NCBI GenBank assembly: GCA_051294905.1
Contig: CM119371.1
Span: 36,954,001-37,018,000, forward strand
Length of the DNA stretch: 64,000 nucleotides
Direction: 5' to 3'
DNA from: Botryllus schlosseri
Lineage: Eukaryota
Below the pieces are notes generated by a model, which was not told the origin of the DNA, did no database searches, and was given only the letters and a program-made list of their open reading frames with translations. The position numbers and the translations under genes were made by a program. Positions 29,065 to 54,702 of this stretch are shown piece after piece (position 1 is the first letter of the stretch; each line of letters opens with the position of its first letter).

Positions 29065-29493
29065 CACTACAAAAAAAAATAAGACATTTTTTATCTTATT
29101 ATCTTAAAGTGACTTTTTATGAAAAAATGTCTTAAAGACCAATTAGTCTTACCAAGTACTTCATGTGTCAAAAGTAAGCCAGAAATTGATCGAAAATAGT
29201 AACAGTGCCTTGGGGGCATCCTTTTCAATGTTAGGGGTCTGAGCGGAGGAGGGGAAGGATGAGAGAGACCAGAAATTGCAGGGTTGAGTTGATCCTGGAC
29301 TAAGTTTACAAGATATTCACTAGATATAGTTATCAAGGTACATGCCACTTACTACTCACATTTACTATTCAGATCAATATATATATGGTTGTCTGAGTCG
29401 AAAATAGCATTTATGGTGAGTGGGTAAAATGAGACCAAATCATCCTCATTTCTTAAATTTGAGACCAAATTTGTCTAATTTTTTTTTGTAGTG
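29065..29493 (-). mobile_element. Solo CACTA (EnSpm-like) MITE
   Basis: CACTACAAAAAAAA...TTTTTTTTGTAGTG, with 2-bp TA duplication. It is a diverged inverted copy of the array MITE. Confidence 0.85.
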
Positions 29494-31998
29494 TAGAACA
29501 GGGTGTCCAAGTCCAACCTTTTTTACCAAAGGGCAATATTCGGTTAACGAATGATTACAAGGGCCACTTGATTATTGATGAACTTTTTGCTGTTTTTCCA
29601 CATACGATGGAGCCAAGTTGCTAAAATAAATGATATGAGAAATCAGTGTCCATCAATTTATCGGTTGCGCAAAAATCTACCTGTAAGCTAATTTCTTTCT
29701 CCGCTCAAGGGTTCCATACTCCAGTAGATGGTTTTAGTGTGACATTTTCAAGTCCAGTGTGTTAGGTACTATAACCAATAAGTGTCGCGCGTAGAAAGTT
29801 GTTATGACGATTGCCAGAGAACCCGGACCTTGGAGAACCCGGCCTTACAAACTCGGCCCTCGGAGAACTCGGCCCTCGGAGAACCCGGACCTCGGAGAAC
29901 CCGGCCCTCGGGAAATTTTGTATATCAAGCACGCGTGGTCTACTTCACTACAAAAAAAATTAGACAAATTGGTCTCAAAATTAGACAAATTTGGTCTCAA
30001 ATTTAAGAAATGAGGATGATTTGGTCTCATTTTACCACCCACTCACCATAAATGCTATTTTCGACTCAGACAACCATATATATATTGATATGAATAGTAC
30101 ATGTGAGTAGTAAGTGGCATGTACCTTGATAACTATATCTAGTGAATACCTTGTAAACTTAGTACAGGATCATCTCAACACTGCAATTTCTGGTCTCTCT
30201 CATCCTTCCCCTCCTCCGCTCAGACCCCTAACACTGAAAAGGATGCCCCCGAGGCACTGCTACTATTTTCGATCAATTTCTGGCTTACTTTTGAGACATA
30301 AAGTACTTGGTAAGACTAATTGGTCTTTAAGACTTTTTTTTGTAAAAAATCGATTTGAGACATTGAGACCAAATTTGTCTTATTTTTTTTTGTAGTGTAT
30401 GTACGGGAATTCGAAACAAGCTATGAAGTTAATCGGTCACACTCTAGCCTCGGCCTACAAAGGAAGCGGCATGCACACACAAATAAAATAAATTACATAT
30501 ATCCACAGTGTCCCCTTTCTAACCTACATGAATAATGCCAAATACCTCCGTTGATGTTCTACTAGATTCGACTCGACTCGATCATTTCCTCGAAGATTCC
30601 GATCCGTTAGCTCGAAGCTAAAACCCGTCCACGAACTCCGGACCGTCAAAAATCCAGTTTCTATATGCGCAAATGAATTTATTGAATTCACGGGACTGTG
30701 ATGGAAATATGCATATTGAAACTGATATTATACGAGAAAAACAAATTGTTTTTAACATAAATACCCGCTTGAACCTTTCTCTATAGGAAATGATCATGAA
30801 TTCTAGGAAAAAGGTAATGCAGAGGCGTCCAGGTCCGCTAATCTAATTGACGAACCTACGGGGCTCGTTCACTTTCGGACCAAAAATCAATTTTCTCCAT
30901 AAGGACGTAGTAGAATTGGTCCTCAAGTGAACGAGCCCCGTCCCGGTCCGTATTGGGGCGCGTGTAGTCGCGTTTGTCGCGGGCGGACAGGGGTATCGGC
31001 GGTTGTTTTTGTTGTATTTCTGCGTATTCGGGTCGGATTCCGTCGCATATTTTGTTTGTGATTTTTTGCCGAGAACATATTAAAAAATTAATAAAAATGT
31101 TCGTGGTATCAGAGGATTTACTCAGATATCTACACCATCGAATGTTTACATTCGATATAGAAGCACTGTTGGAGCTCAAAAACTACCCATGCTTTCCAAA
31201 TGAAAACCTGATTTTCAGTGCTGACATAAATGTATCACCGGCCCATCTGCATCCAGAGGCCTGCCCTTCTCTTTTCAAAGCCTGAATCTGATCCTTGTTG
31301 AAAAAACCTTCCTATCCTTCTCCATCTGTTCCTTGTTATCCGAGCTTACATCCAAGTTCCAAAACGATCATAAATTGTGCAATTCCGCTATTAATCACAT
31401 TTGGGTATCTTGTTTGGTTTTCATTGTGTATTTGTATCGTCAAAATGCTACAATTAATTTCACAATGATTTCGCATTACCAGCGATTTCAACAGCGCAAT
31501 TTCTTCGTCTTTCTCCCTGAATTTCTTTGCACTGTATTCCGTGGCACACAAGACCTAAACAGGTGATAAGGGCGGCGACTCTATAAACTTTTAATCATAA
31601 TAATAACGCGCAATTTCTTCATCTTTCTCCTGACACCGGCCTTGTAGCTGCAAATTGTAAGATGGGTGACTTTATATCGTATTGGGTGGTCTATGCTGTT
31701 ACAGTATGTATGCGGCAAGTTTCTATTGGCCATATTGAATCTTACTAGCTCCATCTCCTGCTTCAACAGGATACAATTCTCACAAGAAGCCTTTAGGTTG
31801 AGATTCTAAATATATCGCCATATGTAGGCCTACAATTCGTTGATGCAGCCCAGAAATGCATTTTGCTGTGGTAGTCCGGGGTGATCTGAAATAAAAACGA
31901 CCAGCAGACAACGAAAATACATAAATTCACCTTGGTTTCTATGTCCAATATACCAGTTGCGGGCGTAATCCCATAAATATCACTGCCAATATGAACGA

Positions 31999-32098
31999 NN
32001 NNNNNNNNNNNNNNNNNNNNNNNNNNNNNNNNNNNNNNNNNNNNNNNNNNNNNNNNNNNNNNNNNNNNNNNNNNNNNNNNNNNNNNNNNNNNNNNNNN
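31999..32098. other. Assembly gap (100 N) in the first array unit
   Basis: Run of N; the first unit lacks ~1 kb of the 4124-bp period. Confidence 0.99.
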
Positions 32099-33138
32099 TA
32101 CTTTCATTCAGTGTGCATGCCTCCTCTTTACTACGCCTAGGCCAAGGTGGGTGTCCGATTCCATTGACAAATCCAAGTCGCTTCGACATCTTCCTGTCTA
32201 TTCATTGTATCGCATTTTTTGTGGTGTATTGAACTGATAAAATTGCTAATAAACCAATGATGATGTCGCTAAGAGTTAATTTATAGTTTCGAAGTAATTT
32301 CCCAACGCGTTGCGGCATACGAAGCGGGGTGCGTCATTGTATATGAGATATCTGTGAAGTCGTGGTCGAGCCGCGGCAACAGTGACAATGGATGCGCAAT
32401 AGGACTGTTGAAAAATAACCTTTATTTCTGAATCTTGTTGGTTACGTGATTAAATCGATAAAACGACGTATTTTATTCGCTGTGGCCACTCTACATGTAT
32501 AATTTGTATACATTTCAACTTTCCACGCCGTTCTCATTGATAATCGAACACTCGACACGACTCGAAGCCCAATACACATTGTCGTCTACTTATGACCCGT
32601 CGTTTCTAAAAGCTTATCGCTCTTTCAATTTAGAGTCCCAATTTCCAGCGCGGCGCTCGACGCTCAGGCTATCGCTCTCCCCCGTGGCGAGCGAGGGCCG
32701 ATCATCAATGGGCTTTTGCCGCGTTGTAGTACTGGTTGGCGACGTGGCAGAACCGGGCTGCGGTCATCGCCTGACAGGTCTGAACTGCCCCTCAGACGAG
32801 CGCGGGTCAGATGGGGCTGCGGGTCTTGCTAGCTCCGCGAAACGCGGCTGTAGGAAGTAGAGGTGTTAATTTTGCACAGCTCGATCGAGCTGCCCCGCCG
32901 TCGAAAACCGGTCGTTTACGCAGCCGTCTCGCGCGGATCCGGAGCTTGCGCGCCGGTCAGCGCGCGAACACGTTCCGCCCCGCGGACCGGTCGGCCACTT
33001 CCGGGGTCGGCGCCACGGCCCGGGTCACGACGAACACTAGCACAGAAAGCCGTGCCCCGACCGGCGTCGGCCGTCGCCGAGAGCTTCATCGTTTCGTTCG
33101 CGTCTGCTCGTTCGGCAGTCGTTGGTTATATACGTATA

Positions 33139-33590
33139 CACTACAAAAAAAATTAGACAAATTGGTCTCAAAATTAGACAAATTTGGTCTCAAATTTAAG
33201 AAATGAGGATGATTTGGTCTCATTTTACCACCCACTCACCATAAATGCTATTTTCGACTCAGACAACCATATATATATTGATATGAATAGTACATGTGAG
33301 TAGTAAGTGGCATGTACCTTGATAACTATATCTAGTGAATACCTTGTAAACTTAGTACAGGATCATCTCAACACTGCAATTTCTGGTCTCTCTCATCCTT
33401 CCCCTCCTCCGCTCAGACCCCTAACACTGAAAAGGATGCCCCCGAGGCACTGCTACTATTTTCGATCAATTTCTGGCTTACTTTTGAGACATAAAGTACT
33501 TGGTAAGACTAATTGGTCTTTAAGACTTTTTTTTGTAAAAAATCGATTTGAGACATTGAGACCAAATTTGTCTTATTTTTTTTTGTAGTG
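33139..33590 (+). mobile_element. CACTA MITE (representative array copy)
   Basis: CACTA...TAGTG termini, repeated ttggtctca motifs, TA on both sides. Confidence 0.88.
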
Positions 33591-34339
33591 TATGTACGGG
33601 AATTCGAAACAAGCTATGAAGTTAATCGGTCACACTCTAGCCTCGGCCTACAAAGGAAGCGGCATGCACACACAAATAAAATAAATTACATATATCCACA
33701 GTGTCCCCTTTCTAACCTACATGAATAATGCCAAATACCTCCGTTGATGTTCTACTAGATTCGACTCGACTCGATCATTTCCTCGAAGATTCCGATCCGT
33801 TAGCTCGAAGCTAAAACCCGTCCACGAACTCCGGACCGTCAAAATTCCAGTTTCTATATGCGCAAATGAATTTATTGAATTCACGGGACTGTGATGGAAA
33901 TATGCATATTGAAACTGATATTATACGAGAAAAACAAATTGTTTTTAACATAAATACCCGCTTGAACCTTTCTCTATAGGAAATGATCATGAATTCTAGG
34001 AAAAAGGTAATGCAGAGGCGTCCAGGTCCGCTAATCTAATTGACGAACCTACGGGGCTCGTTCACTTTCGGACCAAAAATCAATTTTCTCCATAAGGACG
34101 TAGTAGAATTGGTCCTCAAGTGAACGAGCCCCGTCCCGGTCCGTATTGGGGCGCGTGTAGTCGCGTTTGTCGCGGGCGGACAGGGGTATCGGCGGTTGTT
34201 TTTGTTGTATTTCTGCGTATTCGGGTCGGATTCCGTCGCATATTTTGTTTGTGATTTTTTGCCGAGAACATATTAAAAAATTAATAAAAATGTTCGTGGT
34301 ATCAGAGGATTTACTCAGATATCTACACCATCGAATGTT

Positions 34340-35317
34340 TACATTCGATATAGAAGCACTGTTGGAGCTCAAAAACTACCCATGCTTTCCAAATGAAAAC
34401 CTGATTTTCAGTGCTGACATAAATGTATCACCGGCCCATCTGCATCCAGAGGCCTGCCCTTCTCTTTTCAAAGCCTGAATCTGATCCTTGTTGAAAAAAC
34501 CTTCCTATCCTTCTCCATCTGTTCCTTGTTATCCGAGCTTACATCCAAGTTCCAAAACGATCATAAATTGTGCAATTCCGCTATTAATCACATTTGGGTA
34601 TCTTGTTTGGTTTTCATTGTGTATTTGTATCGTCAAAATGCTACAATTAATTTCACAATGATTTCGCATTACCAGCGATTTCAACAGCGCAATTTCTTCG
34701 TCTTTCTCCCTGAATTTCTTTGCACTGTATTCCGTGGCACACAAGACCTAAACAGGTGATAAGGGCGGCGACTCTATAAACTTTTAATCATAATAATAAC
34801 GCGCAATTTCTTCATCTTTCTCCTGACACCGGCCTTGTAGCTGCAAATTGTAAGATGGGTGACTTTATATCGTATTGGGTGGTCTATGCTGTTACAGTAT
34901 GTATGCGGCAAGTTTCTATTGGCCATATTGAATCTTACTAGCTCCATCTCCTGCTTCAACAGGATACAATTCTCACAAGAAGCCTTTAGGTTGAGATTCT
35001 AAATATATCGCCATATGTAGGCCTACAATTCGTTGATGCAGCCCAGAAATGCATTTTGCTGTGGTAGTCCGGGGTGATCTGAAATAAAAACGACCAGCAG
35101 ACAACGAAAATACATAAATTCACCTTGGTTTCTATGTCCAATATACCAGTTGCGGGCGTAATCCCATAAATATCACTGCCAATATGAACGAAAACTACAG
35201 CCTCACACATAGGTTCAGGCTGTTTTTGTGGTCTTTTGAGACCAAAATGGATGCCGCAACGTAACAGTGGCATGACGCAACAATGACCTCGCACTTCTTG
35301 CCCTTCTACATTCTTTG
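34340..35317 (-). pseudogene. 5' part of a P-1-family element in each array unit (TIR plus degenerate N-terminal exons)
   Basis: The terminus CAAAGAATGTAGAAGGGCAAGAAGTGCGAGGTCA is at 35317. Exons CENCILLKQEMEL, LQGRCQEKDEEIA and DQIQALKREGQASGCRW..ALKIRFS parallel the P-1 exons at 11729-12234. Confidence 0.85.
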
Positions 35318-35361
35318 GGCGTAACCATACCGTATACTTTTTCGCTCTTCATTTTCGCCTT

Positions 35362-35439
35362 TGGTGGGAGGGATTCGAGCCCCGGCGCGGCGTGGCGGCG
35401 AGGCAAGCACAGTGCTTATACCCATTAGGCCACGACGCC
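35362..35439 (-). other. tRNA-like Pol III promoter / SINE head in each array unit
   Basis: A-box TGGCCTAATGG and B-box-like GGCTCGAATCC at tRNA-like spacing. The acceptor stem does not pair. Confidence 0.55.
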
Positions 35440-35659
35440 CTCGAGAGCGGGAGACGATACGCGGCAATTCGAATTCGCACGCTCGCGTCATCCGCTGGAG
35501 GTCTCTCGCATAATCCCGCGGTTCCCGCCGTCCGCGAGCGGGCTCGTAGTTTGGGGCCGGGCGAACACAATGGCACGGGCACTCAAAAATGAACAGAGTA
35601 ACAATTTAAAGATTCTAATCGTGTAGTGATACATGATTTCTTAGCGTACTGAAATTAGA

Positions 35660-36389
35660 CGATCCTGTCGAAGTTACATTATGGCATCCTCTGTTGGGGG
35701 GCTGCCAGTAAAACTGCACTCAAGCCACTGCAGAAACTACAGCATAAAGTGCTCCGAATCATAGCTAGGGCCCCAAAGGGGCCTGGCTGCCCATCCAATA
35801 AGTCGCTGCTGAAGAGATTCGGCGTCCTAAACATAGAAGATATGCGGAAACTAGAAATCGCCAAGTTTATGTATCAGTTTCACTGCGGTCGTTGCCCCGA
35901 ATATTTCAATGACTTCTTTACCTCTGAATCAAAAGCGCGCACAAGTACAACACACGCGCGTCCACGTCGTCCAAATATCATATGATCGACCGAAAAGATC
36001 ATCGCTCCATCAGATATGCCGGACCTGATGTGTGGAATAGTATCCCGCCGGCCATCCGACAGTCGACGAGCATGTCCACATTCAAGTCGAAATACAAGCA
36101 ATTACTACTAAATAAATACAGTCCGTCCTCAAGATTACCGGACCACGACTGACCTATCGATCTCGCTTCCCATGACATGCCGCCCTATTTCTTGTCGCTT
36201 TCTTTTTCTATACTGTATTCTTTACTTTCATTCAGTGTGCATGCCTCCTCTTTACTACGCCTAGGCCAAGGTGGGTGTCCGATTCCATTGACAAATCCAA
36301 GTCGCTTCGACATCTTCCTGTCTATTCATTGTATCGCATTTTTTGTGGTGTATTGAACTGATAAAATTGCTAATAAACCAATGATGATG
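35660..36389 (+). mobile_element. 3' fragment of a CR1/L2-group LINE in each array unit
   Basis: SKLHYGILCWG...LQKLQHKVLRII...KFMY...YAGPDVWNSIP...FKSK is a typical ORF2 C-terminus (frameshifted), followed by a 3' UTR ending aataaa-ccaatgatgatg. Confidence 0.85.
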
Positions 36390-39300
36390 TCGCTAAGAGT
36401 TAATTTATAGTTTCGAAGTAATTTCCCAACGCGTTGCGGCATACGAAGCGGGGTGCGTCATTGTATATGAGATATCTGTGAAGTCGTGGTCGAGCCGCGG
36501 CAACAGTGACAATGGATGCGCAATAGGACTGTTGAAAAATAACCTTTATTTCTGAATCTTGTTGGTTACGTGATTAAATCGATAAAACGACGTATTTTAT
36601 TCGCTGTGGCCACTCTACATGTATAATTTGTATACATTTCAACTTTCCACGCCGTTCTCATTGATAATCGAACACTCGACACGACTCGAAGCCCAATACA
36701 CATTGTCGTCTACTTATGACCCGTCGTTTCTAAAAGCTTATCGCTCTTTCAATTTAGAGTCCCAATTTCCAGCGCGGCGCTCGACGCTCAGGCTATCGCT
36801 CTCCCCCGTGGCGAGCGAGGGCCGATCATCAATGGGCTTTTGCCGCGTTGTAGTACTGGTTGGCGACGTGGCAGAACCGGGCTGCGGTCATCGCCTGACA
36901 GGTCTGAACTGCCCCTCAGACGAGCGCGGGTCAGATGGGGCTGCGGGTCTTGCTAGCTCCGCGAAACGCGGCTGTAGGAAGTAGAGGTGTTAATTTTGCA
37001 CAGCTCGATCGAGCTGCCCCGCCGTCGAAAACCGGTCGTTTACGCAGCCGTCTCGCGCGGATCCGGAGCTTGCGCGCCGGTCAGCGCGCGAACACGTTCC
37101 GCCCCGCGGACCGGTCGGCCACTTCCGGGGTCGGCGCCACGGCCCGGGTCACGACGAACACTAGCACAGAAAGCCGTGCCCCGACCGGCGTCGGCCGTCG
37201 CCGAGAGCTTCATCGTTTCGTTCGCGTCTGCTCGTTCGGCAGTCGTTGGTTATATACGTATACACTACAAAAAAAATTAGACAAATTGGTCTCAAAATTA
37301 GACAAATTTGGTCTCAAATTTAAGAAATGAGGATGATTTGGTCTCATTTTACCACCCACTCACCATAAATGCTATTTTCGACTCAGACAACCATATATAT
37401 ATTGATATGAATAGTACATGTGAGTAGTAAGTGGCATGTACCTTGATAACTATATCTAGTGAATACCTTGTAAACTTAGTACAGGATCATCTCAACACTG
37501 CAATTTCTGGTCTCTCTCATCCTTCCCCTCCTCCGCTCAGACCCCTAACACTGAAAAGGATGCCCCCGAGGCACTGCTACTATTTTCGATCAATTTCTGG
37601 CTTACTTTTGAGACATAAAGTACTTGGTAAGACTAATTGGTCTTTAAGACTTTTTTTTGTAAAAAATCGATTTGAGACATTGAGACCAAATTTGTCTTAT
37701 TTTTTTTTGTAGTGTATGTACGGGAATTCGAAACAAGCTATGAAGTTAATCGGTCACACTCTAGCCTCGGCCTACAAAGGAAGCGGCATGCACACACAAA
37801 TAAAATAAATTACATATATCCACAGTGTCCCCTTTCTAACCTACATGAATAATGCCAAATACCTCCGTTGATGTTCTACTAGATTCGACTCGACTCGATC
37901 ATTTCCTCGAAGATTCCGATCCGTTAGCTCGAAGCTAAAACCCGTCCACGAACTCCGGACCGTCAAAAATCCAGTTTCTATATGCGCAAATGAATTTATT
38001 GAATTCACGGGACTGTGATGGAAATATGCATATTGAAACTGATATTATACGAGAAAAACAAATTGTTTTTAACATAAATACCCGCTTGAACCTTTCTCTA
38101 TAGGAAATGATCATGAATTCTAGGAAAAAGGTAATGCAGAGGCGTCCAGGTCCGCTAATCTAATTGACGAACCTACGGGGCTCGTTCACTTTCGGACCAA
38201 AAATCAATTTTCTCCATAAGGACGTAGTAGAATTGGTCCTCAAGTGAACGAGCCCCGTCCCGGTCCGTATTGGGGCGCGTGTAGTCGCGTTTGTCGCGGG
38301 CGGACAGGGGTATCGGCGGTTGTTTTTGTTGTATTTCTGCGTATTCGGGTCGGATTCCGTCGCATATTTTGTTTGTGATTTTTTGCCGAGAACATATTAA
38401 AAAATTAATAAAAATGTTCGTGGTATCAGAGGATTTACTCAGATATCTACACCATCGAATGTTTACATTCGATATAGAAGCACTGTTGGAGCTCAAAAAC
38501 TACCCATGCTTTCCAAATGAAAACCTGATTTTCAGTGCTGACATAAATGTATCACCGGCCCATCTGCATCCAGAGGCCTGCCCTTCTCTTTTCAAAGCCT
38601 GAATCTGATCCTTGTTGAAAAAACCTTCCTATCCTTCTCCATCTGTTCCTTGTTATCCGAGCTTACATCCAAGTTCCAAAACGATCATAAATTGTGCAAT
38701 TCCGCTATTAATCACATTTGGGTATCTTGTTTGGTTTTCATTGTGTATTTGTATCGTCAAAATGCTACAATTAATTTCACAATGATTTCGCATTACCAGC
38801 GATTTCAACAGCGCAATTTCTTCGTCTTTCTCCCTGAATTTCTTTGCACTGTATTCCGTGGCACACAAGACCTAAACAGGTGATAAGGGCGGCGACTCTA
38901 TAAACTTTTAATCATAATAATAACGCGCAATTTCTTCATCTTTCTCCTGACACCGGCCTTGTAGCTGCAAATTGTAAGATGGGTGACTTTATATCGTATT
39001 GGGTGGTCTATGCTGTTACAGTATGTATGCGGCAAGTTTCTATTGGCCATATTGAATCTTACTAGCTCCATCTCCTGCTTCAACAGGATACAATTCTCAC
39101 AAGAAGCCTTTAGGTTGAGATTCTAAATATATCGCCATATGTAGGCCTACAATTCGTTGATGCAGCCCAGAAATGCATTTTGCTGTGGTAGTCCGGGGTG
39201 ATCTGAAATAAAAACGACCAGCAGACAACGAAAATACATAAATTCACCTTGGTTTCTATGTCCAATATACCAGTTGCGGGCGTAATCCCATAAATATCAC

Positions 39301-42300
39301 TGCCAATATGAACGAAAACTACAGCCTCACACATAGGTTCAGGCTGTTTTTGTGGTCTTTTGAGACCAAAATGGATGCCGCAACGTAACAGTGGCATGAC
39401 GCAACAATGACCTCGCACTTCTTGCCCTTCTACATTCTTTGGGCGTAACCATACCGTATACTTTTTCGCTCTTCATTTTCGCCTTTGGTGGGAGGGATTC
39501 GAGCCCCGGCGCGGCGTGGCGGCGAGGCAAGCACAGTGCTTATACCCATTAGGCCACGACGCCCTCGAGAGCGGGAGACGATACGCGGCAATTCGAATTC
39601 GCACGCTCGCGTCATCCGCTGGAGGTCTCTCGCATAATCCCGCGGTTCCCGCCGTCCGCGAGCGGGCTCGTAGTTTGGGGCCGGGCGAACACAATGGCAC
39701 GGGCACTCAAAAATGAACAGAGTAACAATTTAAAGATTCTAATCGTGTAGTGATACATGATTTCTTAGCGTACTGAAATTAGACGATCCTGTCGAAGTTA
39801 CATTATGGCATCCTCTGTTGGGGGGCTGCCAGTAAAACTGCACTCAAGCCACTGCAGAAACTACAGCATAAAGTGCTCCGAATCATAGCTAGGGCCCCAA
39901 AGGGGCCTGGCTGCCCATCCAATAAGTCGCTGCTGAAGAGATTCGGCGTCCTAAACATAGAAGATATGCGGAAACTAGAAATCGCCAAGTTTATGTATCA
40001 GTTTCACTGCGGTCGTTGCCCCGAATATTTCAATGACTTCTTTACCTCTGAATCAAAAGCGCGCACAAGTACAACACACGCGCGTCCACGTCGTCCAAAT
40101 ATCATATGATCGACCGAAAAGATCATCGCTCCATCAGATATGCCGGACCTGATGTGTGGAATAGTATCCCGCCGGCCATCCGACAGTCGACGAGCATGTC
40201 CACATTCAAGTCGAAATACAAGCAATTACTACTAAATAAATACAGTCCGTCCTCAAGATTACCGGACCACGACTGACCTATCGATCTCGCTTCCCATGAC
40301 ATGCCGCCCTATTTCTTGTCGCTTTCTTTTTCTATACTGTATTCTTTACTTTCATTCAGTGTGCATGCCTCCTCTTTACTACGCCTAGGCCAAGGTGGGT
40401 GTCCGATTCCATTGACAAATCCAAGTCGCTTCGACATCTTCCTGTCTATTCATTGTATCGCATTTTTTGTGGTGTATTGAACTGATAAAATTGCTAATAA
40501 ACCAATGATGATGTCGCTAAGAGTTAATTTATAGTTTCGAAGTAATTTCCCAACGCGTTGCGGCATACGAAGCGGGGTGCGTCATTGTATATGAGATATC
40601 TGTGAAGTCGTGGTCGAGCCGCGGCAACAGTGACAATGGATGCGCAATAGGACTGTTGAAAAATAACCTTTATTTCTGAATCTTGTTGGTTACGTGATTA
40701 AATCGATAAAACGACGTATTTTATTCGCTGTGGCCACTCTACATGTATAATTTGTATACATTTCAACTTTCCACGCCGTTCTCATTGATAATCGAACACT
40801 CGACACGACTCGAAGCCCAATACACATTGTCGTCTACTTATGACCCGTCGTTTCTAAAAGCTTATCGCTCTTTCAATTTAGAGTCCCAATTTCCAGCGCG
40901 GCGCTCGACGCTCAGGCTATCGCTCTCCCCCGTGGCGAGCGAGGGCCGATCATCAATGGGCTTTTGCCGCGTTGTAGTACTGGTTGGCGACGTGGCAGAA
41001 CCGGGCTGCGGTCATCGCCTGACAGGTCTGAACTGCCCCTCAGACGAGCGCGGGTCAGATGGGGCTGCGGGTCTTGCTAGCTCCGCGAAACGCGGCTGTA
41101 GGAAGTAGAGGTGTTAATTTTGCACAGCTCGATCGAGCTGCCCCGCCGTCGAAAACCGGTCGTTTACGCAGCCGTCTCGCGCGGATCCGGAGCTTGCGCG
41201 CCGGTCAGCGCGCGAACACGTTCCGCCCCGCGGACCGGTCGGCCACTTCCGGGGTCGGCGCCACGGCCCGGGTCACGACGAACACTAGCACAGAAAGCCG
41301 TGCCCCGACCGGCGTCGGCCGTCGCCGAGAGCTTCATCGTTTCGTTCGCGTCTGCTCGTTCGGCAGTCGTTGGTTATATACGTATACACTACAAAAAAAA
41401 TTAGACAAATTGGTCTCAAAATTAGACAAATTTGGTCTCAAATTTAAGAAATGAGGATGATTTGGTCTCATTTTACCACCCACTCACCATAAATGCTATT
41501 TTCGACTCAGACAACCATATATATATTGATATGAATAGTACATGTGAGTAGTAAGTGGCATGTACCTTGATAACTATATCTAGTGAATACCTTGTAAACT
41601 TAGTACAGGATCATCTCAACACTGCAATTTCTGGTCTCTCTCATCCTTCCCCTCCTCCGCTCAGACCCCTAACACTGAAAAGGATGCCCCCGAGGCACTG
41701 CTACTATTTTCGATCAATTTCTGGCTTACTTTTGAGACATAAAGTACTTGGTAAGACTAATTGGTCTTTAAGACTTTTTTTTGTAAAAAATCGATTTGAG
41801 ACATTGAGACCAAATTTGTCTTATTTTTTTTTGTAGTGTATGTACGGGAATTCGAAACAAGCTATGAAGTTAATCGGTCACACTCTAGCCTCGGCCTACA
41901 AAGGAAGCGGCATGCACACACAAATAAAATAAATTACATATATCCACAGTGTCCCCTTTCTAACCTACATGAATAATGCCAAATACCTCCGTTGATGTTC
42001 TACTAGATTCGACTCGACTCGATCATTTCCTCGAAGATTCCGATCCGTTAGCTCGAAGCTAAAACCCGTCCACGAACTCCGGACCGTCAAAAATCCAGTT
42101 TCTATATGCGCAAATGAATTTATTGAATTCACGGGACTGTGATGGAAATATGCATATTGAAACTGATATTATACGAGAAAAACAAATTGTTTTTAACATA
42201 AATACCCGCTTGAACCTTTCTCTATAGGAAATGATCATGAATTCTAGGAAAAAGGTAATGCAGAGGCGTCCAGGTCCGCTAATCTAATTGACGAACCTAC

Positions 42301-45300
42301 GGGGCTCGTTCACTTTCGGACCAAAAATCAATTTTCTCCATAAGGACGTAGTAGAATTGGTCCTCAAGTGAACGAGCCCCGTCCCGGTCCGTATTGGGGC
42401 GCGTGTAGTCGCGTTTGTCGCGGGCGGACAGGGGTATCGGCGGTTGTTTTTGTTGTATTTCTGCGTATTCGGGTCGGATTCCGTCGCATATTTTGTTTGT
42501 GATTTTTTGCCGAGAACATATTAAAAAATTAATAAAAATGTTCGTGGTATCAGAGGATTTACTCAGATATCTACACCATCGAATGTTTACATTCGATATA
42601 GAAGCACTGTTGGAGCTCAAAAACTACCCATGCTTTCCAAATGAAAACCTGATTTTCAGTGCTGACATAAATGTATCACCGGCCCATCTGCATCCAGAGG
42701 CCTGCCCTTCTCTTTTCAAAGCCTGAATCTGATCCTTGTTGAAAAAACCTTCCTATCCTTCTCCATCTGTTCCTTGTTATCCGAGCTTACATCCAAGTTC
42801 CAAAACGATCATAAATTGTGCAATTCCGCTATTAATCACATTTGGGTATCTTGTTTGGTTTTCATTGTGTATTTGTATCGTCAAAATGCTACAATTAATT
42901 TCACAATGATTTCGCATTACCAGCGATTTCAACAGCGCAATTTCTTCGTCTTTCTCCCTGAATTTCTTTGCACTGTATTCCGTGGCACACAAGACCTAAA
43001 CAGGTGATAAGGGCGGCGACTCTATAAACTTTTAATCATAATAATAACGCGCAATTTCTTCATCTTTCTCCTGACACCGGCCTTGTAGCTGCAAATTGTA
43101 AGATGGGTGACTTTATATCGTATTGGGTGGTCTATGCTGTTACAGTATGTATGCGGCAAGTTTCTATTGGCCATATTGAATCTTACTAGCTCCATCTCCT
43201 GCTTCAACAGGATACAATTCTCACAAGAAGCCTTTAGGTTGAGATTCTAAATATATCGCCATATGTAGGCCTACAATTCGTTGATGCAGCCCAGAAATGC
43301 ATTTTGCTGTGGTAGTCCGGGGTGATCTGAAATAAAAACGACCAGCAGACAACGAAAATACATAAATTCACCTTGGTTTCTATGTCCAATATACCAGTTG
43401 CGGGCGTAATCCCATAAATATCACTGCCAATATGAACGAAAACTACAGCCTCACACATAGGTTCAGGCTGTTTTTGTGGTCTTTTGAGACCAAAATGGAT
43501 GCCGCAACGTAACAGTGGCATGACGCAACAATGACCTCGCACTTCTTGCCCTTCTACATTCTTTGGGCGTAACCATACCGTATACTTTTTCGCTCTTCAT
43601 TTTCGCCTTTGGTGGGAGGGATTCGAGCCCCGGCGCGGCGTGGCGGCGAGGCAAGCACAGTGCTTATACCCATTAGGCCACGACGCCCTCGAGAGCGGGA
43701 GACGATACGCGGCAATTCGAATTCGCACGCTCGCGTCATCCGCTGGAGGTCTCTCGCATAATCCCGCGGTTCCCGCCGTCCGCGAGCGGGCTCGTAGTTT
43801 GGGGCCGGGCGAACACAATGGCACGGGCACTCAAAAATGAACAGAGTAACAATTTAAAGATTCTAATCGTGTAGTGATACATGATTTCTTAGCGTACTGA
43901 AATTAGACGATCCTGTCGAAGTTACATTATGGCATCCTCTGTTGGGGGGCTGCCAGTAAAACTGCACTCAAGCCACTGCAGAAACTACAGCATAAAGTGC
44001 TCCGAATCATAGCTAGGGCCCCAAAGGGGCCTGGCTGCCCATCCAATAAGTCGCTGCTGAAGAGATTCGGCGTCCTAAACATAGAAGATATGCGGAAACT
44101 AGAAATCGCCAAGTTTATGTATCAGTTTCACTGCGGTCGTTGCCCCGAATATTTCAATGACTTCTTTACCTCTGAATCAAAAGCGCGCACAAGTACAACA
44201 CACGCGCGTCCACGTCGTCCAAATATCATATGATCGACCGAAAAGATCATCGCTCCATCAGATATGCCGGACCTGATGTGTGGAATAGTATCCCGCCGGC
44301 CATCCGACAGTCGACGAGCATGTCCACATTCAAGTCGAAATACAAGCAATTACTACTAAATAAATACAGTCCGTCCTCAAGATTACCGGACCACGACTGA
44401 CCTATCGATCTCGCTTCCCATGACATGCCGCCCTATTTCTTGTCGCTTTCTTTTTCTATACTGTATTCTTTACTTTCATTCAGTGTGCATGCCTCCTCTT
44501 TACTACGCCTAGGCCAAGGTGGGTGTCCGATTCCATTGACAAATCCAAGTCGCTTCGACATCTTCCTGTCTATTCATTGTATCGCATTTTTTGTGGTGTA
44601 TTGAACTGATAAAATTGCTAATAAACCAATGATGATGTCGCTAAGAGTTAATTTATAGTTTCGAAGTAATTTCCCAACGCGTTGCGGCATACGAAGCGGG
44701 GTGCGTCATTGTATATGAGATATCTGTGAAGTCGTGGTCGAGCCGCGGCAACAGTGACAATGGATGCGCAATAGGACTGTTGAAAAATAACCTTTATTTC
44801 TGAATCTTGTTGGTTACGTGATTAAATCGATAAAACGACGTATTTTATTCGCTGTGGCCACTCTACATGTATAATTTGTATACATTTCAACTTTCCACGC
44901 CGTTCTCATTGATAATCGAACACTCGACACGACTCGAAGCCCAATACACATTGTCGTCTACTTATGACCCGTCGTTTCTAAAAGCTTATCGCTCTTTCAA
45001 TTTAGAGTCCCAATTTCCAGCGCGGCGCTCGACGCTCAGGCTATCGCTCTCCCCCGTGGCGAGCGAGGGCCGATCATCAATGGGCTTTTGCCGCGTTGTA
45101 GTACTGGTTGGCGACGTGGCAGAACCGGGCTGCGGTCATCGCCTGACAGGTCTGAACTGCCCCTCAGACGAGCGCGGGTCAGATGGGGCTGCGGGTCTTG
45201 CTAGCTCCGCGAAACGCGGCTGTAGGAAGTAGAGGTGTTAATTTTGCACAGCTCGATCGAGCTGCCCCGCCGTCGAAAACCGGTCGTTTACGCAGCCGTC

Positions 45301-48300
45301 TCGCGCGGATCCGGAGCTTGCGCGCCGGTCAGCGCGCGAACACGTTCCGCCCCGCGGACCGGTCGGCCACTTCCGGGGTCGGCGCCACGGCCCGGGTCAC
45401 GACGAACACTAGCACAGAAAGCCGTGCCCCGACCGGCGTCGGCCGTCGCCGAGAGCTTCATCGTTTCGTTCGCGTCTGCTCGTTCGGCAGTCGTTGGTTA
45501 TATACGTATACACTACAAAAAAAATTAGACAAATTGGTCTCAAAATTAGACAAATTTGGTCTCAAATTTAAGAAATGAGGATGATTTGGTCTCATTTTAC
45601 CACCCACTCACCATAAATGCTATTTTCGACTCAGACAACCATATATATATTGATATGAATAGTACATGTGAGTAGTAAGTGGCATGTACCTTGATAACTA
45701 TATCTAGTGAATACCTTGTAAACTTAGTACAGGATCATCTCAACACTGCAATTTCTGGTCTCTCTCATCCTTCCCCTCCTCCGCTCAGACCCCTAACACT
45801 GAAAAGGATGCCCCCGAGGCACTGCTACTATTTTCGATCAATTTCTGGCTTACTTTTGAGACATAAAGTACTTGGTAAGACTAATTGGTCTTTAAGACTT
45901 TTTTTTGTAAAAAATCGATTTGAGACATTGAGACCAAATTTGTCTTATTTTTTTTTGTAGTGTATGTACGGGAATTCGAAACAAGCTATGAAGTTAATCG
46001 GTCACACTCTAGCCTCGGCCTACAAAGGAAGCGGCATGCACACACAAATAAAATAAATTACATATATCCACAGTGTCCCCTTTCTAACCTACATGAATAA
46101 TGCCAAATACCTCCGTTGATGTTCTACTAGATTCGACTCGACTCGATCATTTCCTCGAAGATTCCGATCCGTTAGCTCGAAGCTAAAACCCGTCCACGAA
46201 CTCCGGACCGTCAAAAATCCAGTTTCTATATGCGCAAATGAATTTATTGAATTCACGGGACTGTGATGGAAATATGCATATTGAAACTGATATTATACGA
46301 GAAAAACAAATTGTTTTTAACATAAATACCCGCTTGAACCTTTCTCTATAGGAAATGATCATGAATTCTAGGAAAAAGGTAATGCAGAGGCGTCCAGGTC
46401 CGCTAATCTAATTGACGAACCTACGGGGCTCGTTCACTTTCGGACCAAAAATCAATTTTCTCCATAAGGACGTAGTAGAATTGGTCCTCAAGTGAACGAG
46501 CCCCGTCCCGGTCCGTATTGGGGCGCGTGTAGTCGCGTTTGTCGCGGGCGGACAGGGGTATCGGCGGTTGTTTTTGTTGTATTTCTGCGTATTCGGGTCG
46601 GATTCCGTCGCATATTTTGTTTGTGATTTTTTGCCGAGAACATATTAAAAAATTAATAAAAATGTTCGTGGTATCAGAGGATTTACTCAGATATCTACAC
46701 CATCGAATGTTTACATTCGATATAGAAGCACTGTTGGAGCTCAAAAACTACCCATGCTTTCCAAATGAAAACCTGATTTTCAGTGCTGACATAAATGTAT
46801 CACCGGCCCATCTGCATCCAGAGGCCTGCCCTTCTCTTTTCAAAGCCTGAATCTGATCCTTGTTGAAAAAACCTTCCTATCCTTCTCCATCTGTTCCTTG
46901 TTATCCGAGCTTACATCCAAGTTCCAAAACGATCATAAATTGTGCAATTCCGCTATTAATCACATTTGGGTATCTTGTTTGGTTTTCATTGTGTATTTGT
47001 ATCGTCAAAATGCTACAATTAATTTCACAATGATTTCGCATTACCAGCGATTTCAACAGCGCAATTTCTTCGTCTTTCTCCCTGAATTTCTTTGCACTGT
47101 ATTCCGTGGCACACAAGACCTAAACAGGTGATAAGGGCGGCGACTCTATAAACTTTTAATCATAATAATAACGCGCAATTTCTTCATCTTTCTCCTGACA
47201 CCGGCCTTGTAGCTGCAAATTGTAAGATGGGTGACTTTATATCGTATTGGGTGGTCTATGCTGTTACAGTATGTATGCGGCAAGTTTCTATTGGCCATAT
47301 TGAATCTTACTAGCTCCATCTCCTGCTTCAACAGGATACAATTCTCACAAGAAGCCTTTAGGTTGAGATTCTAAATATATCGCCATATGTAGGCCTACAA
47401 TTCGTTGATGCAGCCCAGAAATGCATTTTGCTGTGGTAGTCCGGGGTGATCTGAAATAAAAACGACCAGCAGACAACGAAAATACATAAATTCACCTTGG
47501 TTTCTATGTCCAATATACCAGTTGCGGGCGTAATCCCATAAATATCACTGCCAATATGAACGAAAACTACAGCCTCACACATAGGTTCAGGCTGTTTTTG
47601 TGGTCTTTTGAGACCAAAATGGATGCCGCAACGTAACAGTGGCATGACGCAACAATGACCTCGCACTTCTTGCCCTTCTACATTCTTTGGGCGTAACCAT
47701 ACCGTATACTTTTTCGCTCTTCATTTTCGCCTTTGGTGGGAGGGATTCGAGCCCCGGCGCGGCGTGGCGGCGAGGCAAGCACAGTGCTTATACCCATTAG
47801 GCCACGACGCCCTCGAGAGCGGGAGACGATACGCGGCAATTCGAATTCGCACGCTCGCGTCATCCGCTGGAGGTCTCTCGCATAATCCCGCGGTTCCCGC
47901 CGTCCGCGAGCGGGCTCGTAGTTTGGGGCCGGGCGAACACAATGGCACGGGCACTCAAAAATGAACAGAGTAACAATTTAAAGATTCTAATCGTGTAGTG
48001 ATACATGATTTCTTAGCGTACTGAAATTAGACGATCCTGTCGAAGTTACATTATGGCATCCTCTGTTGGGGGGCTGCCAGTAAAACTGCACTCAAGCCAC
48101 TGCAGAAACTACAGCATAAAGTGCTCCGAATCATAGCTAGGGCCCCAAAGGGGCCTGGCTGCCCATCCAATAAGTCGCTGCTGAAGAGATTCGGCGTCCT
48201 AAACATAGAAGATATGCGGAAACTAGAAATCGCCAAGTTTATGTATCAGTTTCACTGCGGTCGTTGCCCCGAATATTTCAATGACTTCTTTACCTCTGAA

Positions 48301-51300
48301 TCAAAAGCGCGCACAAGTACAACACACGCGCGTCCACGTCGTCCAAATATCATATGATCGACCGAAAAGATCATCGCTCCATCAGATATGCCGGACCTGA
48401 TGTGTGGAATAGTATCCCGCCGGCCATCCGACAGTCGACGAGCATGTCCACATTCAAGTCGAAATACAAGCAATTACTACTAAATAAATACAGTCCGTCC
48501 TCAAGATTACCGGACCACGACTGACCTATCGATCTCGCTTCCCATGACATGCCGCCCTATTTCTTGTCGCTTTCTTTTTCTATACTGTATTCTTTACTTT
48601 CATTCAGTGTGCATGCCTCCTCTTTACTACGCCTAGGCCAAGGTGGGTGTCCGATTCCATTGACAAATCCAAGTCGCTTCGACATCTTCCTGTCTATTCA
48701 TTGTATCGCATTTTTTGTGGTGTATTGAACTGATAAAATTGCTAATAAACCAATGATGATGTCGCTAAGAGTTAATTTATAGTTTCGAAGTAATTTCCCA
48801 ACGCGTTGCGGCATACGAAGCGGGGTGCGTCATTGTATATGAGATATCTGTGAAGTCGTGGTCGAGCCGCGGCAACAGTGACAATGGATGCGCAATAGGA
48901 CTGTTGAAAAATAACCTTTATTTCTGAATCTTGTTGGTTACGTGATTAAATCGATAAAACGACGTATTTTATTCGCTGTGGCCACTCTACATGTATAATT
49001 TGTATACATTTCAACTTTCCACGCCGTTCTCATTGATAATCGAACACTCGACACGACTCGAAGCCCAATACACATTGTCGTCTACTTATGACCCGTCGTT
49101 TCTAAAAGCTTATCGCTCTTTCAATTTAGAGTCCCAATTTCCAGCGCGGCGCTCGACGCTCAGGCTATCGCTCTCCCCCGTGGCGAGCGAGGGCCGATCA
49201 TCAATGGGCTTTTGCCGCGTTGTAGTACTGGTTGGCGACGTGGCAGAACCGGGCTGCGGTCATCGCCTGACAGGTCTGAACTGCCCCTCAGACGAGCGCG
49301 GGTCAGATGGGGCTGCGGGTCTTGCTAGCTCCGCGAAACGCGGCTGTAGGAAGTAGAGGTGTTAATTTTGCACAGCTCGATCGAGCTGCCCCGCCGTCGA
49401 AAACCGGTCGTTTACGCAGCCGTCTCGCGCGGATCCGGAGCTTGCGCGCCGGTCAGCGCGCGAACACGTTCCGCCCCGCGGACCGGTCGGCCACTTCCGG
49501 GGTCGGCGCCACGGCCCGGGTCACGACGAACACTAGCACAGAAAGCCGTGCCCCGACCGGCGTCGGCCGTCGCCGAGAGCTTCATCGTTTCGTTCGCGTC
49601 TGCTCGTTCGGCAGTCGTTGGTTATATACGTATACACTACAAAAAAAATTAGACAAATTGGTCTCAAAATTAGACAAATTTGGTCTCAAATTTAAGAAAT
49701 GAGGATGATTTGGTCTCATTTTACCACCCACTCACCATAAATGCTATTTTCGACTCAGACAACCATATATATATTGATATGAATAGTACATGTGAGTAGT
49801 AAGTGGCATGTACCTTGATAACTATATCTAGTGAATACCTTGTAAACTTAGTACAGGATCATCTCAACACTGCAATTTCTGGTCTCTCTCATCCTTCCCC
49901 TCCTCCGCTCAGACCCCTAACACTGAAAAGGATGCCCCCGAGGCACTGCTACTATTTTCGATCAATTTCTGGCTTACTTTTGAGACATAAAGTACTTGGT
50001 AAGACTAATTGGTCTTTAAGACTTTTTTTTGTAAAAAATCGATTTGAGACATTGAGACCAAATTTGTCTTATTTTTTTTTGTAGTGTATGTACGGGAATT
50101 CGAAACAAGCTATGAAGTTAATCGGTCACACTCTAGCCTCGGCCTACAAAGGAAGCGGCATGCACACACAAATAAAATAAATTACATATATCCACAGTGT
50201 CCCCTTTCTAACCTACATGAATAATGCCAAATACCTCCGTTGATGTTCTACTAGATTCGACTCGACTCGATCATTTCCTCGAAGATTCCGATCCGTTAGC
50301 TCGAAGCTAAAACCCGTCCACGAACTCCGGACCGTCAAAAATCCAGTTTCTATATGCGCAAATGAATTTATTGAATTCACGGGACTGTGATGGAAATATG
50401 CATATTGAAACTGATATTATACGAGAAAAACAAATTGTTTTTAACATAAATACCCGCTTGAACCTTTCTCTATAGGAAATGATCATGAATTCTAGGAAAA
50501 AGGTAATGCAGAGGCGTCCAGGTCCGCTAATCTAATTGACGAACCTACGGGGCTCGTTCACTTTCGGACCAAAAATCAATTTTCTCCATAAGGACGTAGT
50601 AGAATTGGTCCTCAAGTGAACGAGCCCCGTCCCGGTCCGTATTGGGGCGCGTGTAGTCGCGTTTGTCGCGGGCGGACAGGGGTATCGGCGGTTGTTTTTG
50701 TTGTATTTCTGCGTATTCGGGTCGGATTCCGTCGCATATTTTGTTTGTGATTTTTTGCCGAGAACATATTAAAAAATTAATAAAAATGTTCGTGGTATCA
50801 GAGGATTTACTCAGATATCTACACCATCGAATGTTTACATTCGATATAGAAGCACTGTTGGAGCTCAAAAACTACCCATGCTTTCCAAATGAAAACCTGA
50901 TTTTCAGTGCTGACATAAATGTATCACCGGCCCATCTGCATCCAGAGGCCTGCCCTTCTCTTTTCAAAGCCTGAATCTGATCCTTGTTGAAAAAACCTTC
51001 CTATCCTTCTCCATCTGTTCCTTGTTATCCGAGCTTACATCCAAGTTCCAAAACGATCATAAATTGTGCAATTCCGCTATTAATCACATTTGGGTATCTT
51101 GTTTGGTTTTCATTGTGTATTTGTATCGTCAAAATGCTACAATTAATTTCACAATGATTTCGCATTACCAGCGATTTCAACAGCGCAATTTCTTCGTCTT
51201 TCTCCCTGAATTTCTTTGCACTGTATTCCGTGGCACACAAGACCTAAACAGGTGATAAGGGCGGCGACTCTATAAACTTTTAATCATAATAATAACGCGC

Positions 51301-54210
51301 AATTTCTTCATCTTTCTCCTGACACCGGCCTTGTAGCTGCAAATTGTAAGATGGGTGACTTTATATCGTATTGGGTGGTCTATGCTGTTACAGTATGTAT
51401 GCGGCAAGTTTCTATTGGCCATATTGAATCTTACTAGCTCCATCTCCTGCTTCAACAGGATACAATTCTCACAAGAAGCCTTTAGGTTGAGATTCTAAAT
51501 ATATCGCCATATGTAGGCCTACAATTCGTTGATGCAGCCCAGAAATGCATTTTGCTGTGGTAGTCCGGGGTGATCTGAAATAAAAACGACCAGCAGACAA
51601 CGAAAATACATAAATTCACCTTGGTTTCTATGTCCAATATACCAGTTGCGGGCGTAATCCCATAAATATCACTGCCAATATGAACGAAAACTACAGCCTC
51701 ACACATAGGTTCAGGCTGTTTTTGTGGTCTTTTGAGACCAAAATGGATGCCGCAACGTAACAGTGGCATGACGCAACAATGACCTCGCACTTCTTGCCCT
51801 TCTACATTCGTTGGGCGTAACCATACCGTATACTTTTTCGCTCTTCATTTTCGCCTTTGGTGGGAGGGATTCGAGCCCCGGCGCGGCGTGGCGGCGAGGC
51901 AAGCACAGTGCTTATACCCATTAGGCCACGACGCCCTCGAGAGCGGGAGACGATACGCGGCAATTCGAATTCGCACGCTCGCGTCATCCGCTGGAGGTCT
52001 CTCGCATAATCCCGCGGTTCCCGCCGTCCGCGAGCGGGCTCGTAGTTTGGGGCCGGGCGAACACAATGGCACGGGCACTCAAAAATGAACAGAGTAACAA
52101 TTTAAAGATTCTAATCGTGTAGTGATACATGATTTCTTAGCGTACTGAAATTAGACGATCCTGTCGAAGTTACATTATGGCATCCTCTGTTGGGGGGCTG
52201 CCAGTAAAACTGCACTCAAGCCACTGCAGAAACTACAGCATAAAGTGCTCCGAATCATAGCTAGGGCCCCAAAGGGGCCTGGCTGCCCATCCAATAAGTC
52301 GCTGCTGAAGAGATTCGGCGTCCTAAACATAGAAGATATGCGGAAACTAGAAATCGCCAAGTTTATGTATCAGTTTCACTGCGGTCGTTGCCCCGAATAT
52401 TTCAATGACTTCTTTACCTCTGAATCAAAAGCGCGCACAAGTACAACACACGCGCGTCCACGTCGTCCAAATATCATATGATCGACCGAAAAGATCATCG
52501 CTCCATCAGATATGCCGGACCTGATGTGTGGAATAGTATCCCGCCGGCCATCCGACAGTCGACGAGCATGTCCACATTCAAGTCGAAATACAAGCAATTA
52601 CTACTAAATAAATACAGTCCGTCCTCAAGATTACCGGACCACGACTGACCTATCGATCTCGCTTCCCATGACATGCCGCCCTATTTCTTGTCGCTTTCTT
52701 TTTCTATACTGTATTCTTTACTTTCATTCAGTGTGCATGCCTCCTCTTTACTACGCCTAGGCCAAGGTGGGTGTCCGATTCCATTGACAAATCCAAGTCG
52801 CTTCGACATCTTCCTGTCTATTCATTGTATCGCATTTTTTGTGGTGTATTGAACTGATAAAATTGCTAATAAACCAATGATGATGTCGCTAAGAGTTAAT
52901 TTATAGTTTCGAAGTAATTTCCCAACGCGTTGCGGCATACGAAGCGGGGTGCGTCATTGTATATGAGATATCTGTGAAGTCGTGGTCGAGCCGCGGCAAC
53001 AGTGACAATGGATGCGCAATAGGACTGTTGAAAAATAACCTTTATTTCTGAATCTTGTTGGTTACGTGATTAAATCGATAAAACGACGTATTTTATTCGC
53101 TGTGGCCACTCTACATGTATAATTTGTATACATTTCAACTTTCCACGCCGTTCTCATTGATAATCGAACACTCGACACGACTCGAAGCCCAATACACATT
53201 GTCGTCTACTTATGACCCGTCGTTTCTAAAAGCTTATCGCTCTTTCAATTTAGAGTCCCAATTTCCAGCGCGGCGCTCGACGCTCAGGCTATCGCTCTCC
53301 CCCGTGGCGAGCGAGGGCCGATCATCAATGGGCTTTTGCCGCGTTGTAGTACTGGTTGGCGACGTGGCAGAACCGGGCTGCGGTCATCGCCTGACAGGTC
53401 TGAACTGCCCCTCAGACGAGCGCGGGTCAGATGGGGCTGCGGGTCTTGCTAGCTCCGCGAAACGCGGCTGTAGGAAGTAGAGGTGTTAATTTTGCACAGC
53501 TCGATCGAGCTGCCCCGCCGTCGAAAACCGGTCGTTTACGCAGCCGTCTCGCGCGGATCCGGAGCTTGCGCGCCGGTCAGCGCGCGAACACGTTCCGCCC
53601 CGCGGACCGGTCGGCCACTTCCGGGGTCGGCGCCACGGCCCGGGTCACGACGAACACTAGCACAGAAAGCCGTGCCCCGACCGGCGTCGGCCGTCGCCGA
53701 GAGCTTCATCGTTTCGTTCGCGTCTGCTCGTTCGGCAGTCGTTGGTTATATACGTATACACTACAAAAAAAATTAGACAAATTGGTCTCAAAATTAGACA
53801 AATTTGGTCTCAAATTTAAGAAATGAGGATGATTTGGTCTCATTTTACCACCCACTCACCATAAATGCTATTTTCGACTCAGACAACCATATATATATTG
53901 ATATGAATAGTACATGTGAGTAGTAAGTGGCATGTACCTTGATAACTATATCTAGTGAATACCTTGTAAACTTAGTACAGGATCATCTCAACACTGCAAT
54001 TTCTGGTCTCTCTCATCCTTCCCCTCCTCCGCTCAGACCCCTAACACTGAAAAGGATGCCCCCGAGGCACTGCTACTATTTTCGATCAATTTCTGGCTTA
54101 CTTTTGAGACATAAAGTACTTGGTAAGACTAATTGGTCTTTAAGACTTTTTTTTGTAAAAAATCGATTTGAGACATTGAGACCAAATTTGTCTTATTTTT
54201 TTTTGTAGTG

Positions 54211-54702
54211 TTGTTGTGGTATTCGTGGTGTTTTTCGATTACTCCGGACCGCGGTGAATGCGGCCCTCGAACAATTTTGAATTGAAAATGCATTAAATGT
54301 GAACCCGGCCCTCGGGAAATTTTGTATTCACCGGCAACCCTAATATCCTAACCCTAACCCTAATATCCCACCTCCGGCAACCCTAATATACCACCTCCAC
54401 CAACCCTAATATCCCCCTCCCCCAACCCTAATATCCCCCCTGCCCCAACCACGCGTGGTCTACTTGTTGTGGTATTCGTGGTGTTTTTCGATTACTCCGG
54501 ACCGCGGTGAATGCGGCCCTCGAACAATTTTGAATTGAAAATGCATTAAATGTGAACCCGGCCCTCGGGAAATTTTGTATTCACCGGCAACCCTAATATC
54601 CTAACCCTAACCCTAATATCCCACCTCCGGCAACCCTAATATACCACCTCCACCAACCCTAATATCCCCCTCCCCCAACCCTAATATCCCCCCTGCCCCA
54701 AC
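54211..54702. repeat. 253-bp tandem duplication with aaccctaatatccc repeats
   Basis: 54211-54450 is repeated from 54464. Similar C-rich repeats continue at 56605-56880. Confidence 0.85.

Follow-up and report, generated by a model that had tools for sequence, protein, structure and literature searches.

A CACTA-punctuated macrosatellite array of Botryllus schlosseri that may have moved as a macrotransposon

How a large tandem array comes to stand at a new place in a genome is the question raised by a locus of Botryllus schlosseri. In a 64,000-nucleotide stretch of its genome (the window; assembly GCA_051294905.1, contig CM119371.1, positions 36,954,001 to 37,018,000 of the forward strand), seven copies of a MITE (miniature inverted-repeat transposable element) alternate with a longer segment, here called X. 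A sequence-only reading had proposed that this array was inserted as one composite CACTA transposon. The form MITE-[X-MITE]n that it described was found again. The seven MITEs (starts in Table 1) have CACTA ends and measure 452 bp each, and the six that were compared with the copy at 41387 show 0 differences. The repeat period is 4124 bp, made up of the MITE and 3672 bp of X. Among the five complete units only positions 33845 and 51810 vary (2 in 24,165 bases compared).

The duplications proposed for the array, TT at its outer ends and TA inside, were found again. Copy 1 has TT on its left and TA on its right, the five inner copies have TA on either side, and copy 7 has TA on its left and TT on its right. 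A gap of 100 N's (31999-32098) lies inside the array, with 2,053 bp of array DNA on its left and 22,112 bp on its right, and the orientation agrees across it. The gap stands for 1031 + k x 4124 bp, so the 24 kb given in the sequence-only reading holds as the assembled extent but is a floor for the true length.

The MITE starts with CACTA and ends with TAGTG, and its inverted termini match at 14 of 14 bases and with 91% over 35. A 12-nucleotide subterminal motif was found three times at the left end and once, inverted, at the right end. Short subterminal repeats, direct and inverted, are a trait of CACTA/EnSpm elements. Together with terminal inverted repeats starting with CACT(A/G), and with a duplication of 2 bp in all three distinct contexts (solo TA, inner TA and outer TT), they mark the MITE as a predicted non-autonomous element of the CACTA/EnSpm (CMC) type. 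Tandem long terminal repeat (LTR) retrotransposons and terminal-repeat retrotransposons in miniature (TRIM) have direct repeats with TG...CA ends and duplications of 4-6 bp; this reading was ruled out by the inverted CACTA ends and the 2-bp duplications. The CACTA-type target duplication is 3 bp in fungi; in a zebrafish case it is 2 bp, according to the available part of one report (PMC13189230). A mir-2755 row that falls on the MITE was set aside, as it reflects a hairpin and scores well under the threshold. The MITE-end pattern had four matches in prokaryote genomes, dropped as chance with only 22-35 bases each, and 0 in metagenome contigs and 0 in viral contigs.

The 16 bases that adjoin the array on its left were found at two places in the window and no more. 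At the other place, 54450-54465, they continue into the right-flank sequence and so give an uninterrupted site at 54450-54472, where one had been proposed earlier (about 54457-54472). This site lies inside a perfect tandem duplication of 253 bp, the copies of which are identical at 242 of 242 positions, and their divergence is thereby bounded at <1.2%. Any 2-bp flank match has a chance of 0.066, and the case for the TT duplication therefore rests on this empty-site paralogue and not on the two bases. An inverted paralogue near 56.9 kb gives weak further agreement: beyond the site 6 of 12 bases match (chance 0.07) and the first three of three match (chance 0.015), against 2 of 12 for the start of the MITE. 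The 253-bp duplication was itself considered as a large target duplication and rejected, because it is not on both sides of the array.

As in a macrotransposon, two copies of one element bound the segment, the outer ends share a duplication and the terminal copies have none of their own. The flanks are contiguous in the in-window paralogue; a true empty allele was not seen in the sequencing-run contigs placed on the locus. These features, together with run data that indicate a high-depth array of the unit in other samples, support a compound move, and we lean towards a reading in which two MITEs moved one or more units to this site as a macrotransposon and the block probably expanded locally afterwards. 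The donor would be an established macrosatellite array elsewhere, each unit of which has one intact MITE. There a CACTA transposase, supplied in trans, would pair the left end of a first MITE with the right end of a second that lies further on in this array, and the block between the paired ends, be it one unit or several, would insert at TT and duplicate it. The block would then probably grow in place by unequal exchange. Of the composite transposon first proposed, the compound move is retained on the outer TT, the mismatched terminal duplications, the paralogue and the run data. The transfer of all 24 kb at once is not; one moved unit with later expansion fits as well.

The simplest order of events is that the 253-bp duplication came first and the array was then inserted into its first copy. 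Since the interrupted copy is identical to its twin at all 242 positions, the insertion would in this order be young. Recency had previously been argued from the near-identity of the units. This argument was given up, as the arrays of other samples are equally homogeneous, and the 0 differences in 242 positions (<1.2%) are the better clock.

A scaffolding or assembly chimera would offer another explanation, in which the N gap or the MITE was the place where two array ends from separate loci were put together. The gap does lie within the array, the target motif comes from a dispersed repeat, and the outer junctions were confirmed by no run. However, both flanks rebuild one uninterrupted site to the base, with a 16-mer that occurs only twice in 64 kb, and a chimera would require one repeat family to have been hit twice at an identical base. 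The orientation is also consistent across the gap, and each side passes through a MITE into X, with 1.6 kb following at the left end and 22 kb of array present at the right end. We regard a chimera as very unlikely. The left-flank motif consists of a palindrome followed by T's and is part of a dispersed repeat family. A palindrome followed by T's is found at the 3' end of HINE/Helentron elements in the accessible portion of one study (PMC4067079), and the left-flank palindrome is possibly a Helitron/HINE-like 3' end.

The macrotransposon reading supposes that the unit exists as an array elsewhere, and public sequencing runs made by other studies were surveyed over 50087-56000. The survey listed 24 runs, and four of these (X1, X5, X16 and X18) were placed as contigs on 49960-54463. 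From the run contigs 32 of 103,135 pieces, 15 of 186 joints and 24 of 2,812 loose ends were examined. Part of the surveyed stretch is contained in 20 of the 24 runs, from 11 studies, and half or more of it in 11 runs. Runs with small shares (0.27-0.47; seawater and other labels) were not counted as evidence. Runs X2 to X4 contain 0.69-0.70 of the stretch, and the unit alone makes up 0.697 of it. In run X16, six unit contigs with 0-2 differences have a depth of 4069-4789, whereas one diverged contig has 39.5; in run X18 the unit depth is 171-258 (one contig 504), compared with 9-13 for diverged contigs. Record 25 of run X5 spans the MITE-to-X junction with 54 + 140 bases and 0 differences. Record 9 of run X16 reaches just 28 bases into the MITE and was not counted as such a bridge; the X-to-MITE junction was not among the examined run pieces.

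The even cover and high depth of the unit in runs X16 and X18 read as a high-copy array. Both runs are fixed, or nearly so, for other letters at 50227, 50812, 51008 and 51018. Because samples carry fixed variants of their own, the arrays of each sample have been homogenised, and the likeness of the units gives no age for the insertion here. Near-identical, far deeper than the diverged pieces and with its own fixed variants in each sample, the 4124-bp unit is thus a pre-existing, homogenised macrosatellite of B. schlosseri.

Several points weigh against the macrotransposon reading. The depth of a contig cannot be read as a number of copies, and no run type is recorded for X16 and X18. Neither outer junction was among the examined pieces, joints and loose ends of the four runs, the placed stretch covering the right junction only. 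At 54245 and 54251 every placed contig, in four of four runs, differs from the window's flank. The samples of runs X1, X5, X16 and X18 seem to be without the window's copy of the flank, absence from contigs not being proof; no independent sample thus confirms the locus. Finally, with a repeat family as its source, the target motif may be an insertion hotspot.

The depth data also bear on the idea that this is the founding or main macrosatellite locus, old and species-wide, with most of its units inside the gap. The gap could hide further units, and the unit depth in other samples far exceeds six units' worth. However, the interrupted 253-bp copy is identical to its twin (242 of 242, <1.2%), i.e. 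the flank is young, and the flank alleles were unseen in runs X1, X16 and X18, which have the unit at high depth. The unit haplotypes also vary between samples at 50227, 50812, 51008 and 51018. A founding locus is in our view highly improbable.

An older solo copy of the MITE family, inverted and set in TA..TA, lies 452 bp to the left of the array. It is 93% alike, with 25 substitutions in 429 aligned bases and some indels, and is without a 20-bp subterminal segment and three further bases. The 452-bp spacer happens to equal the length of the MITE, and the nearness of the array to this inverted copy is close for chance if the MITE family has only hundreds of copies. At offset 145 all seven array MITEs, the outer two included, have A, and the solo copy has C. 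In the run contigs C makes up all of the placed depth in runs X16, X18 and X5 and 94% in run X1. As the outer MITEs share the rare A, both are tied to the array lineage.

This letter bears on a route in two steps, in which a solo MITE hops to TT and array DNA then recombines in through the 452-bp identity, coming from an excised unit circle, from a concatemer or by ectopic copying from a donor array. Such a route yields the identical final structure, and circle and concatemer routes are discussed for arrays of transposable elements in the available parts of two papers (PMC5932611; PMC12628747). However, parts of the resident MITE would now lie in copy 1 and in copy 7, neither of which differs from the inner copies at any of the 452 bases. 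Given the A at offset 145, a random resident copy is a less likely partner for such recombination: the resident would need an origin in the array lineage or a later conversion. We take this as modest evidence, since contigs drop rare variants. We consider the two-step route unlikely and continue to prefer the macrotransposon.

As to the origin of the unit itself, X had been described as circularly permuted around its MITE. The two TA halves at the end and start of X agree with this description, but they speak only weakly for an origin from a circle. Since the independent sites are one TA (the solo copy) and one TT, the inner TA/TA match gives a likelihood ratio of about 3, not 15, for a permuted X against two separate TA insertions. 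In run X16 the X start is at unit depth only (4104-4141) and the X end is 5-9 times deeper. With the X start at unit depth, and with 15 of 186 joints examined of which none is a MITE-free join between the two ends of X, there is no support for a common MITE-free X. The MITE-free junction pattern had 0 matches in viral contigs, an uninformative result. In our judgement the unit arose with nearly even chances by tandem duplication of a segment with one MITE or by two TA insertions 3.7 kb apart, and with a small chance from a circle.

X is a patchwork: after a start specific to the unit come a repeat that forms a hairpin, an old dispersed repeat, a tRNA-like head, an insertion of 759 bp and a GC-rich end. 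The MITE is without a coding frame, and the longest stop-free frame in the unit has 140 codons. The tRNA-like head is probably a short interspersed element (SINE); there was no ARAGORN call and no match to the B-box pattern at it. The 759-bp insertion we take to be the 3' fragment of a long interspersed element (LINE), the family label being our assumption. Pfam gave no credible family for its two frames, and Atlas gave unnamed eukaryotic clusters at 0.92-0.93, recognition being below the useful level. The GC- and CpG-rich end is several times deeper than the unit in all four examined runs; it is part of another high-copy family, and a reading of it as ribosomal DNA spacer has no support. Two metagenome matches of a 21-mer from the X end were dropped, as they cover only 22-24 bases. 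An array of functional RNA genes (5S, small nuclear RNA, transfer RNA or ribosomal DNA) was rejected, as the unit is without a recognisable RNA gene: Rfam gave 0 matches at gathering score and three sub-threshold rows, none of them credible by E-value, and 0 transfer RNA genes were found. The unit is transposon debris with one intact non-autonomous CACTA/EnSpm MITE, and X appears to fit the pattern of composite satellite monomers, as far as the available part of one paper describes it (PMC12628747).

The run contigs also contain variants of the unit. A relative about 90% alike to window positions from about 50800 to 53758 is without the 759-bp insertion, and its joint from 52166 to 52926 has a depth of 3854 in run X16 and 25 in run X5. 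In run X16 this sister family is about as deep as the unit. Another joint of run X16, from 50088 to 50514, skips 425 bp right after the MITE end at a depth of 406, and 406 together with the 4069 of the full form equals the depth of the unit interior. About one tenth of the units in run X16 may have a deletion beside the MITE end.

Other features of the window include a hAT-like element to the right of the array (Table 1). Its left terminus is the exact end of the 253-bp duplication, with 3 bp of microhomology at both breakpoints, and the duplication may be a by-product of the element's activity. Copies of a repeat family with internal tandem repeats of 16 bp and 23 bp and a 3' palindrome lie at 29805-29945, 54300-54450 and 56605-57351, in both orientations; the family resembles non-autonomous HINE/Helentron elements. 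A single open frame of 512 codons at 59310-60845 encodes 18 C2H2 zinc fingers in 84-bp repeats. Further young elements are a direct repeat of 438 bp (7654-8091 and 8855-9290; 98%, about 1.2 kb apart), an inverted pair of 278 bp (3617-4242; 95%) and an inverted pair of 185 bp (13178-13362 and 25716-25900; 99%, 12.5 kb apart).

Table 1. Positions in the window of the array, its flanks, the parts of X and neighbouring elements.
Feature	Position	Strand	Remark
Older solo MITE-family copy, 429 bp, inverted, TA..TA duplication	29065..29493	-	
Left flank: first 16 bp of interrupted 253-bp copy, ending in TT duplication (29944-29945)	29930..29945	+	
MITE copy 1, left outer array end, TT..TA	29946..30397	+	
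X copy 1, interrupted by assembly gap	30398..33138	+	
100-N assembly gap	31999..32098	.	hides 1031 + k x 4124 bp
Five complete 4124-bp units, each starting with its MITE (33139, 37263, 41387, 45511, 49635), all MITEs in TA..TA	33139..53758	+	
Start of X (last unit), unit-specific	50087..50513	+	bin depth in run X16 4104-4141, about that of a single unit contig (4069)
Hairpin-forming dispersed repeat in X, long stem	50514..50660	.	depth in run X16 54,000-56,000
Old dispersed repeat in X	50872..51500	+	79-84% alike to window 11726-12240
tRNA-like head with A box	51690..51936	-	body 84% alike to 4879-4966
Very high-copy 759-bp insertion in X, short frames and ATG-repeat tail	52167..52925	+	depth near 10^6 in runs X1 and X16
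GC-rich end of X	53287..53758	.	64-69% GC over 53287-53686, common to other high-depth families
MITE copy 7, right outer array end, TA..TT	53759..54210	+	
Right flank: TT duplication (54211-54212); perfect tandem duplication of 253 bp, with uninterrupted site 54450-54472	54211..54705	+	
hAT-like element	54703..56604	.	14 of first 15 terminal bases match; 8-bp flanking duplication 7/8; superfamily inferred from the 8-bp duplication

Macrotransposons of the Ac/Ds type were reportedly described by Huang and Dooner in 2008. In the accessible part of a later report, the ends of two linked elements move 10-28 kb together, and a 28-kb Ac macrotransposon was seen to excise (PMC9910405). The maize case was shown genetically, whereas the Botryllus case is inferred from one assembly. 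The closest known case appears to be maize White Cap, a Tam3L macro-transposon with 1-23 tandem 28-kb repeats, for which macro-transposition and then tandem expansion by unequal crossing-over were proposed, as stated in the available portion of the preprint (bioRxiv 10.1101/082677). In both, a pair of elements with terminal inverted repeats bounds the moved segment, the duplication is common to the outer ends only, and tandem repeats are punctuated by transposon sequence. White Cap differs in being a hAT element of a plant, with an 8-bp duplication and gene cargo, whereas the Botryllus array has CACTA-type MITEs, a 2-bp duplication, a non-coding macrosatellite cargo and an intact MITE in each unit.

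Related cases in animals were compared through the available parts of the sources. The zebrafish elements EnSpm-N49/N49B are non-autonomous CMC-EnSpm elements with a 2-bp CA duplication (PMC13189230); like the MITE they start with CACT and then a run of A, duplicate 2 bp and are without a transposase, but they form a single 2.5-kb insertion, without array or compound move. Tandem arrays of transposable elements grow by unequal exchange (PMC5932611), and coral CMITE arrays have spacers (PMC2872659). Such arrays and composite monomers share with the Botryllus array the order element-spacer-element and several transposon remnants per monomer; the portions of these papers available (PMC5932611, PMC2872659, PMC12628747) do not describe an array that lies as a whole within a target duplication of its own at some new place. 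In Takifugu, a sex-determining supergene is flanked by CACTA elements, no terminal inverted repeats were found and ectopic recombination was preferred (PMC9191631, in part). That animal segment also lies between directly oriented CACTA elements and has changed position, but the Botryllus array has intact terminal inverted repeats and a target duplication. Among the literature matches listed, in a search with most subscription papers outside it, no report was found of a CACTA-MITE pair moving an animal macrosatellite.

The spread of large tandem arrays to new sites is usually left to inference, with circles or ectopic recombination as the means. At this locus the event is on record in the target duplication and in the empty-site twin next to it, which speak for a transposase acting on satellite-embedded ends. 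The mechanism is known from maize; the variant lies in the CACTA-type elements, in an animal as host and in the cargo, a macrosatellite. Every unit has an intact pair of CACTA ends, so any run of units is a ready macrotransposon. It is possible, although we hold it as doubtful, that the macrosatellite is self-mobilising, the array repeatedly seeding daughter arrays at new loci by cut-and-paste and each of these bearing a 2-bp scar of its own. Should further daughter arrays exist whose 2-bp scars are distinct, the rate of satellite seeding and the size of the blocks would become measurable. A self-mobilising macrosatellite would, if true, be a directly countable mechanism by which satellites spread between loci in an animal.

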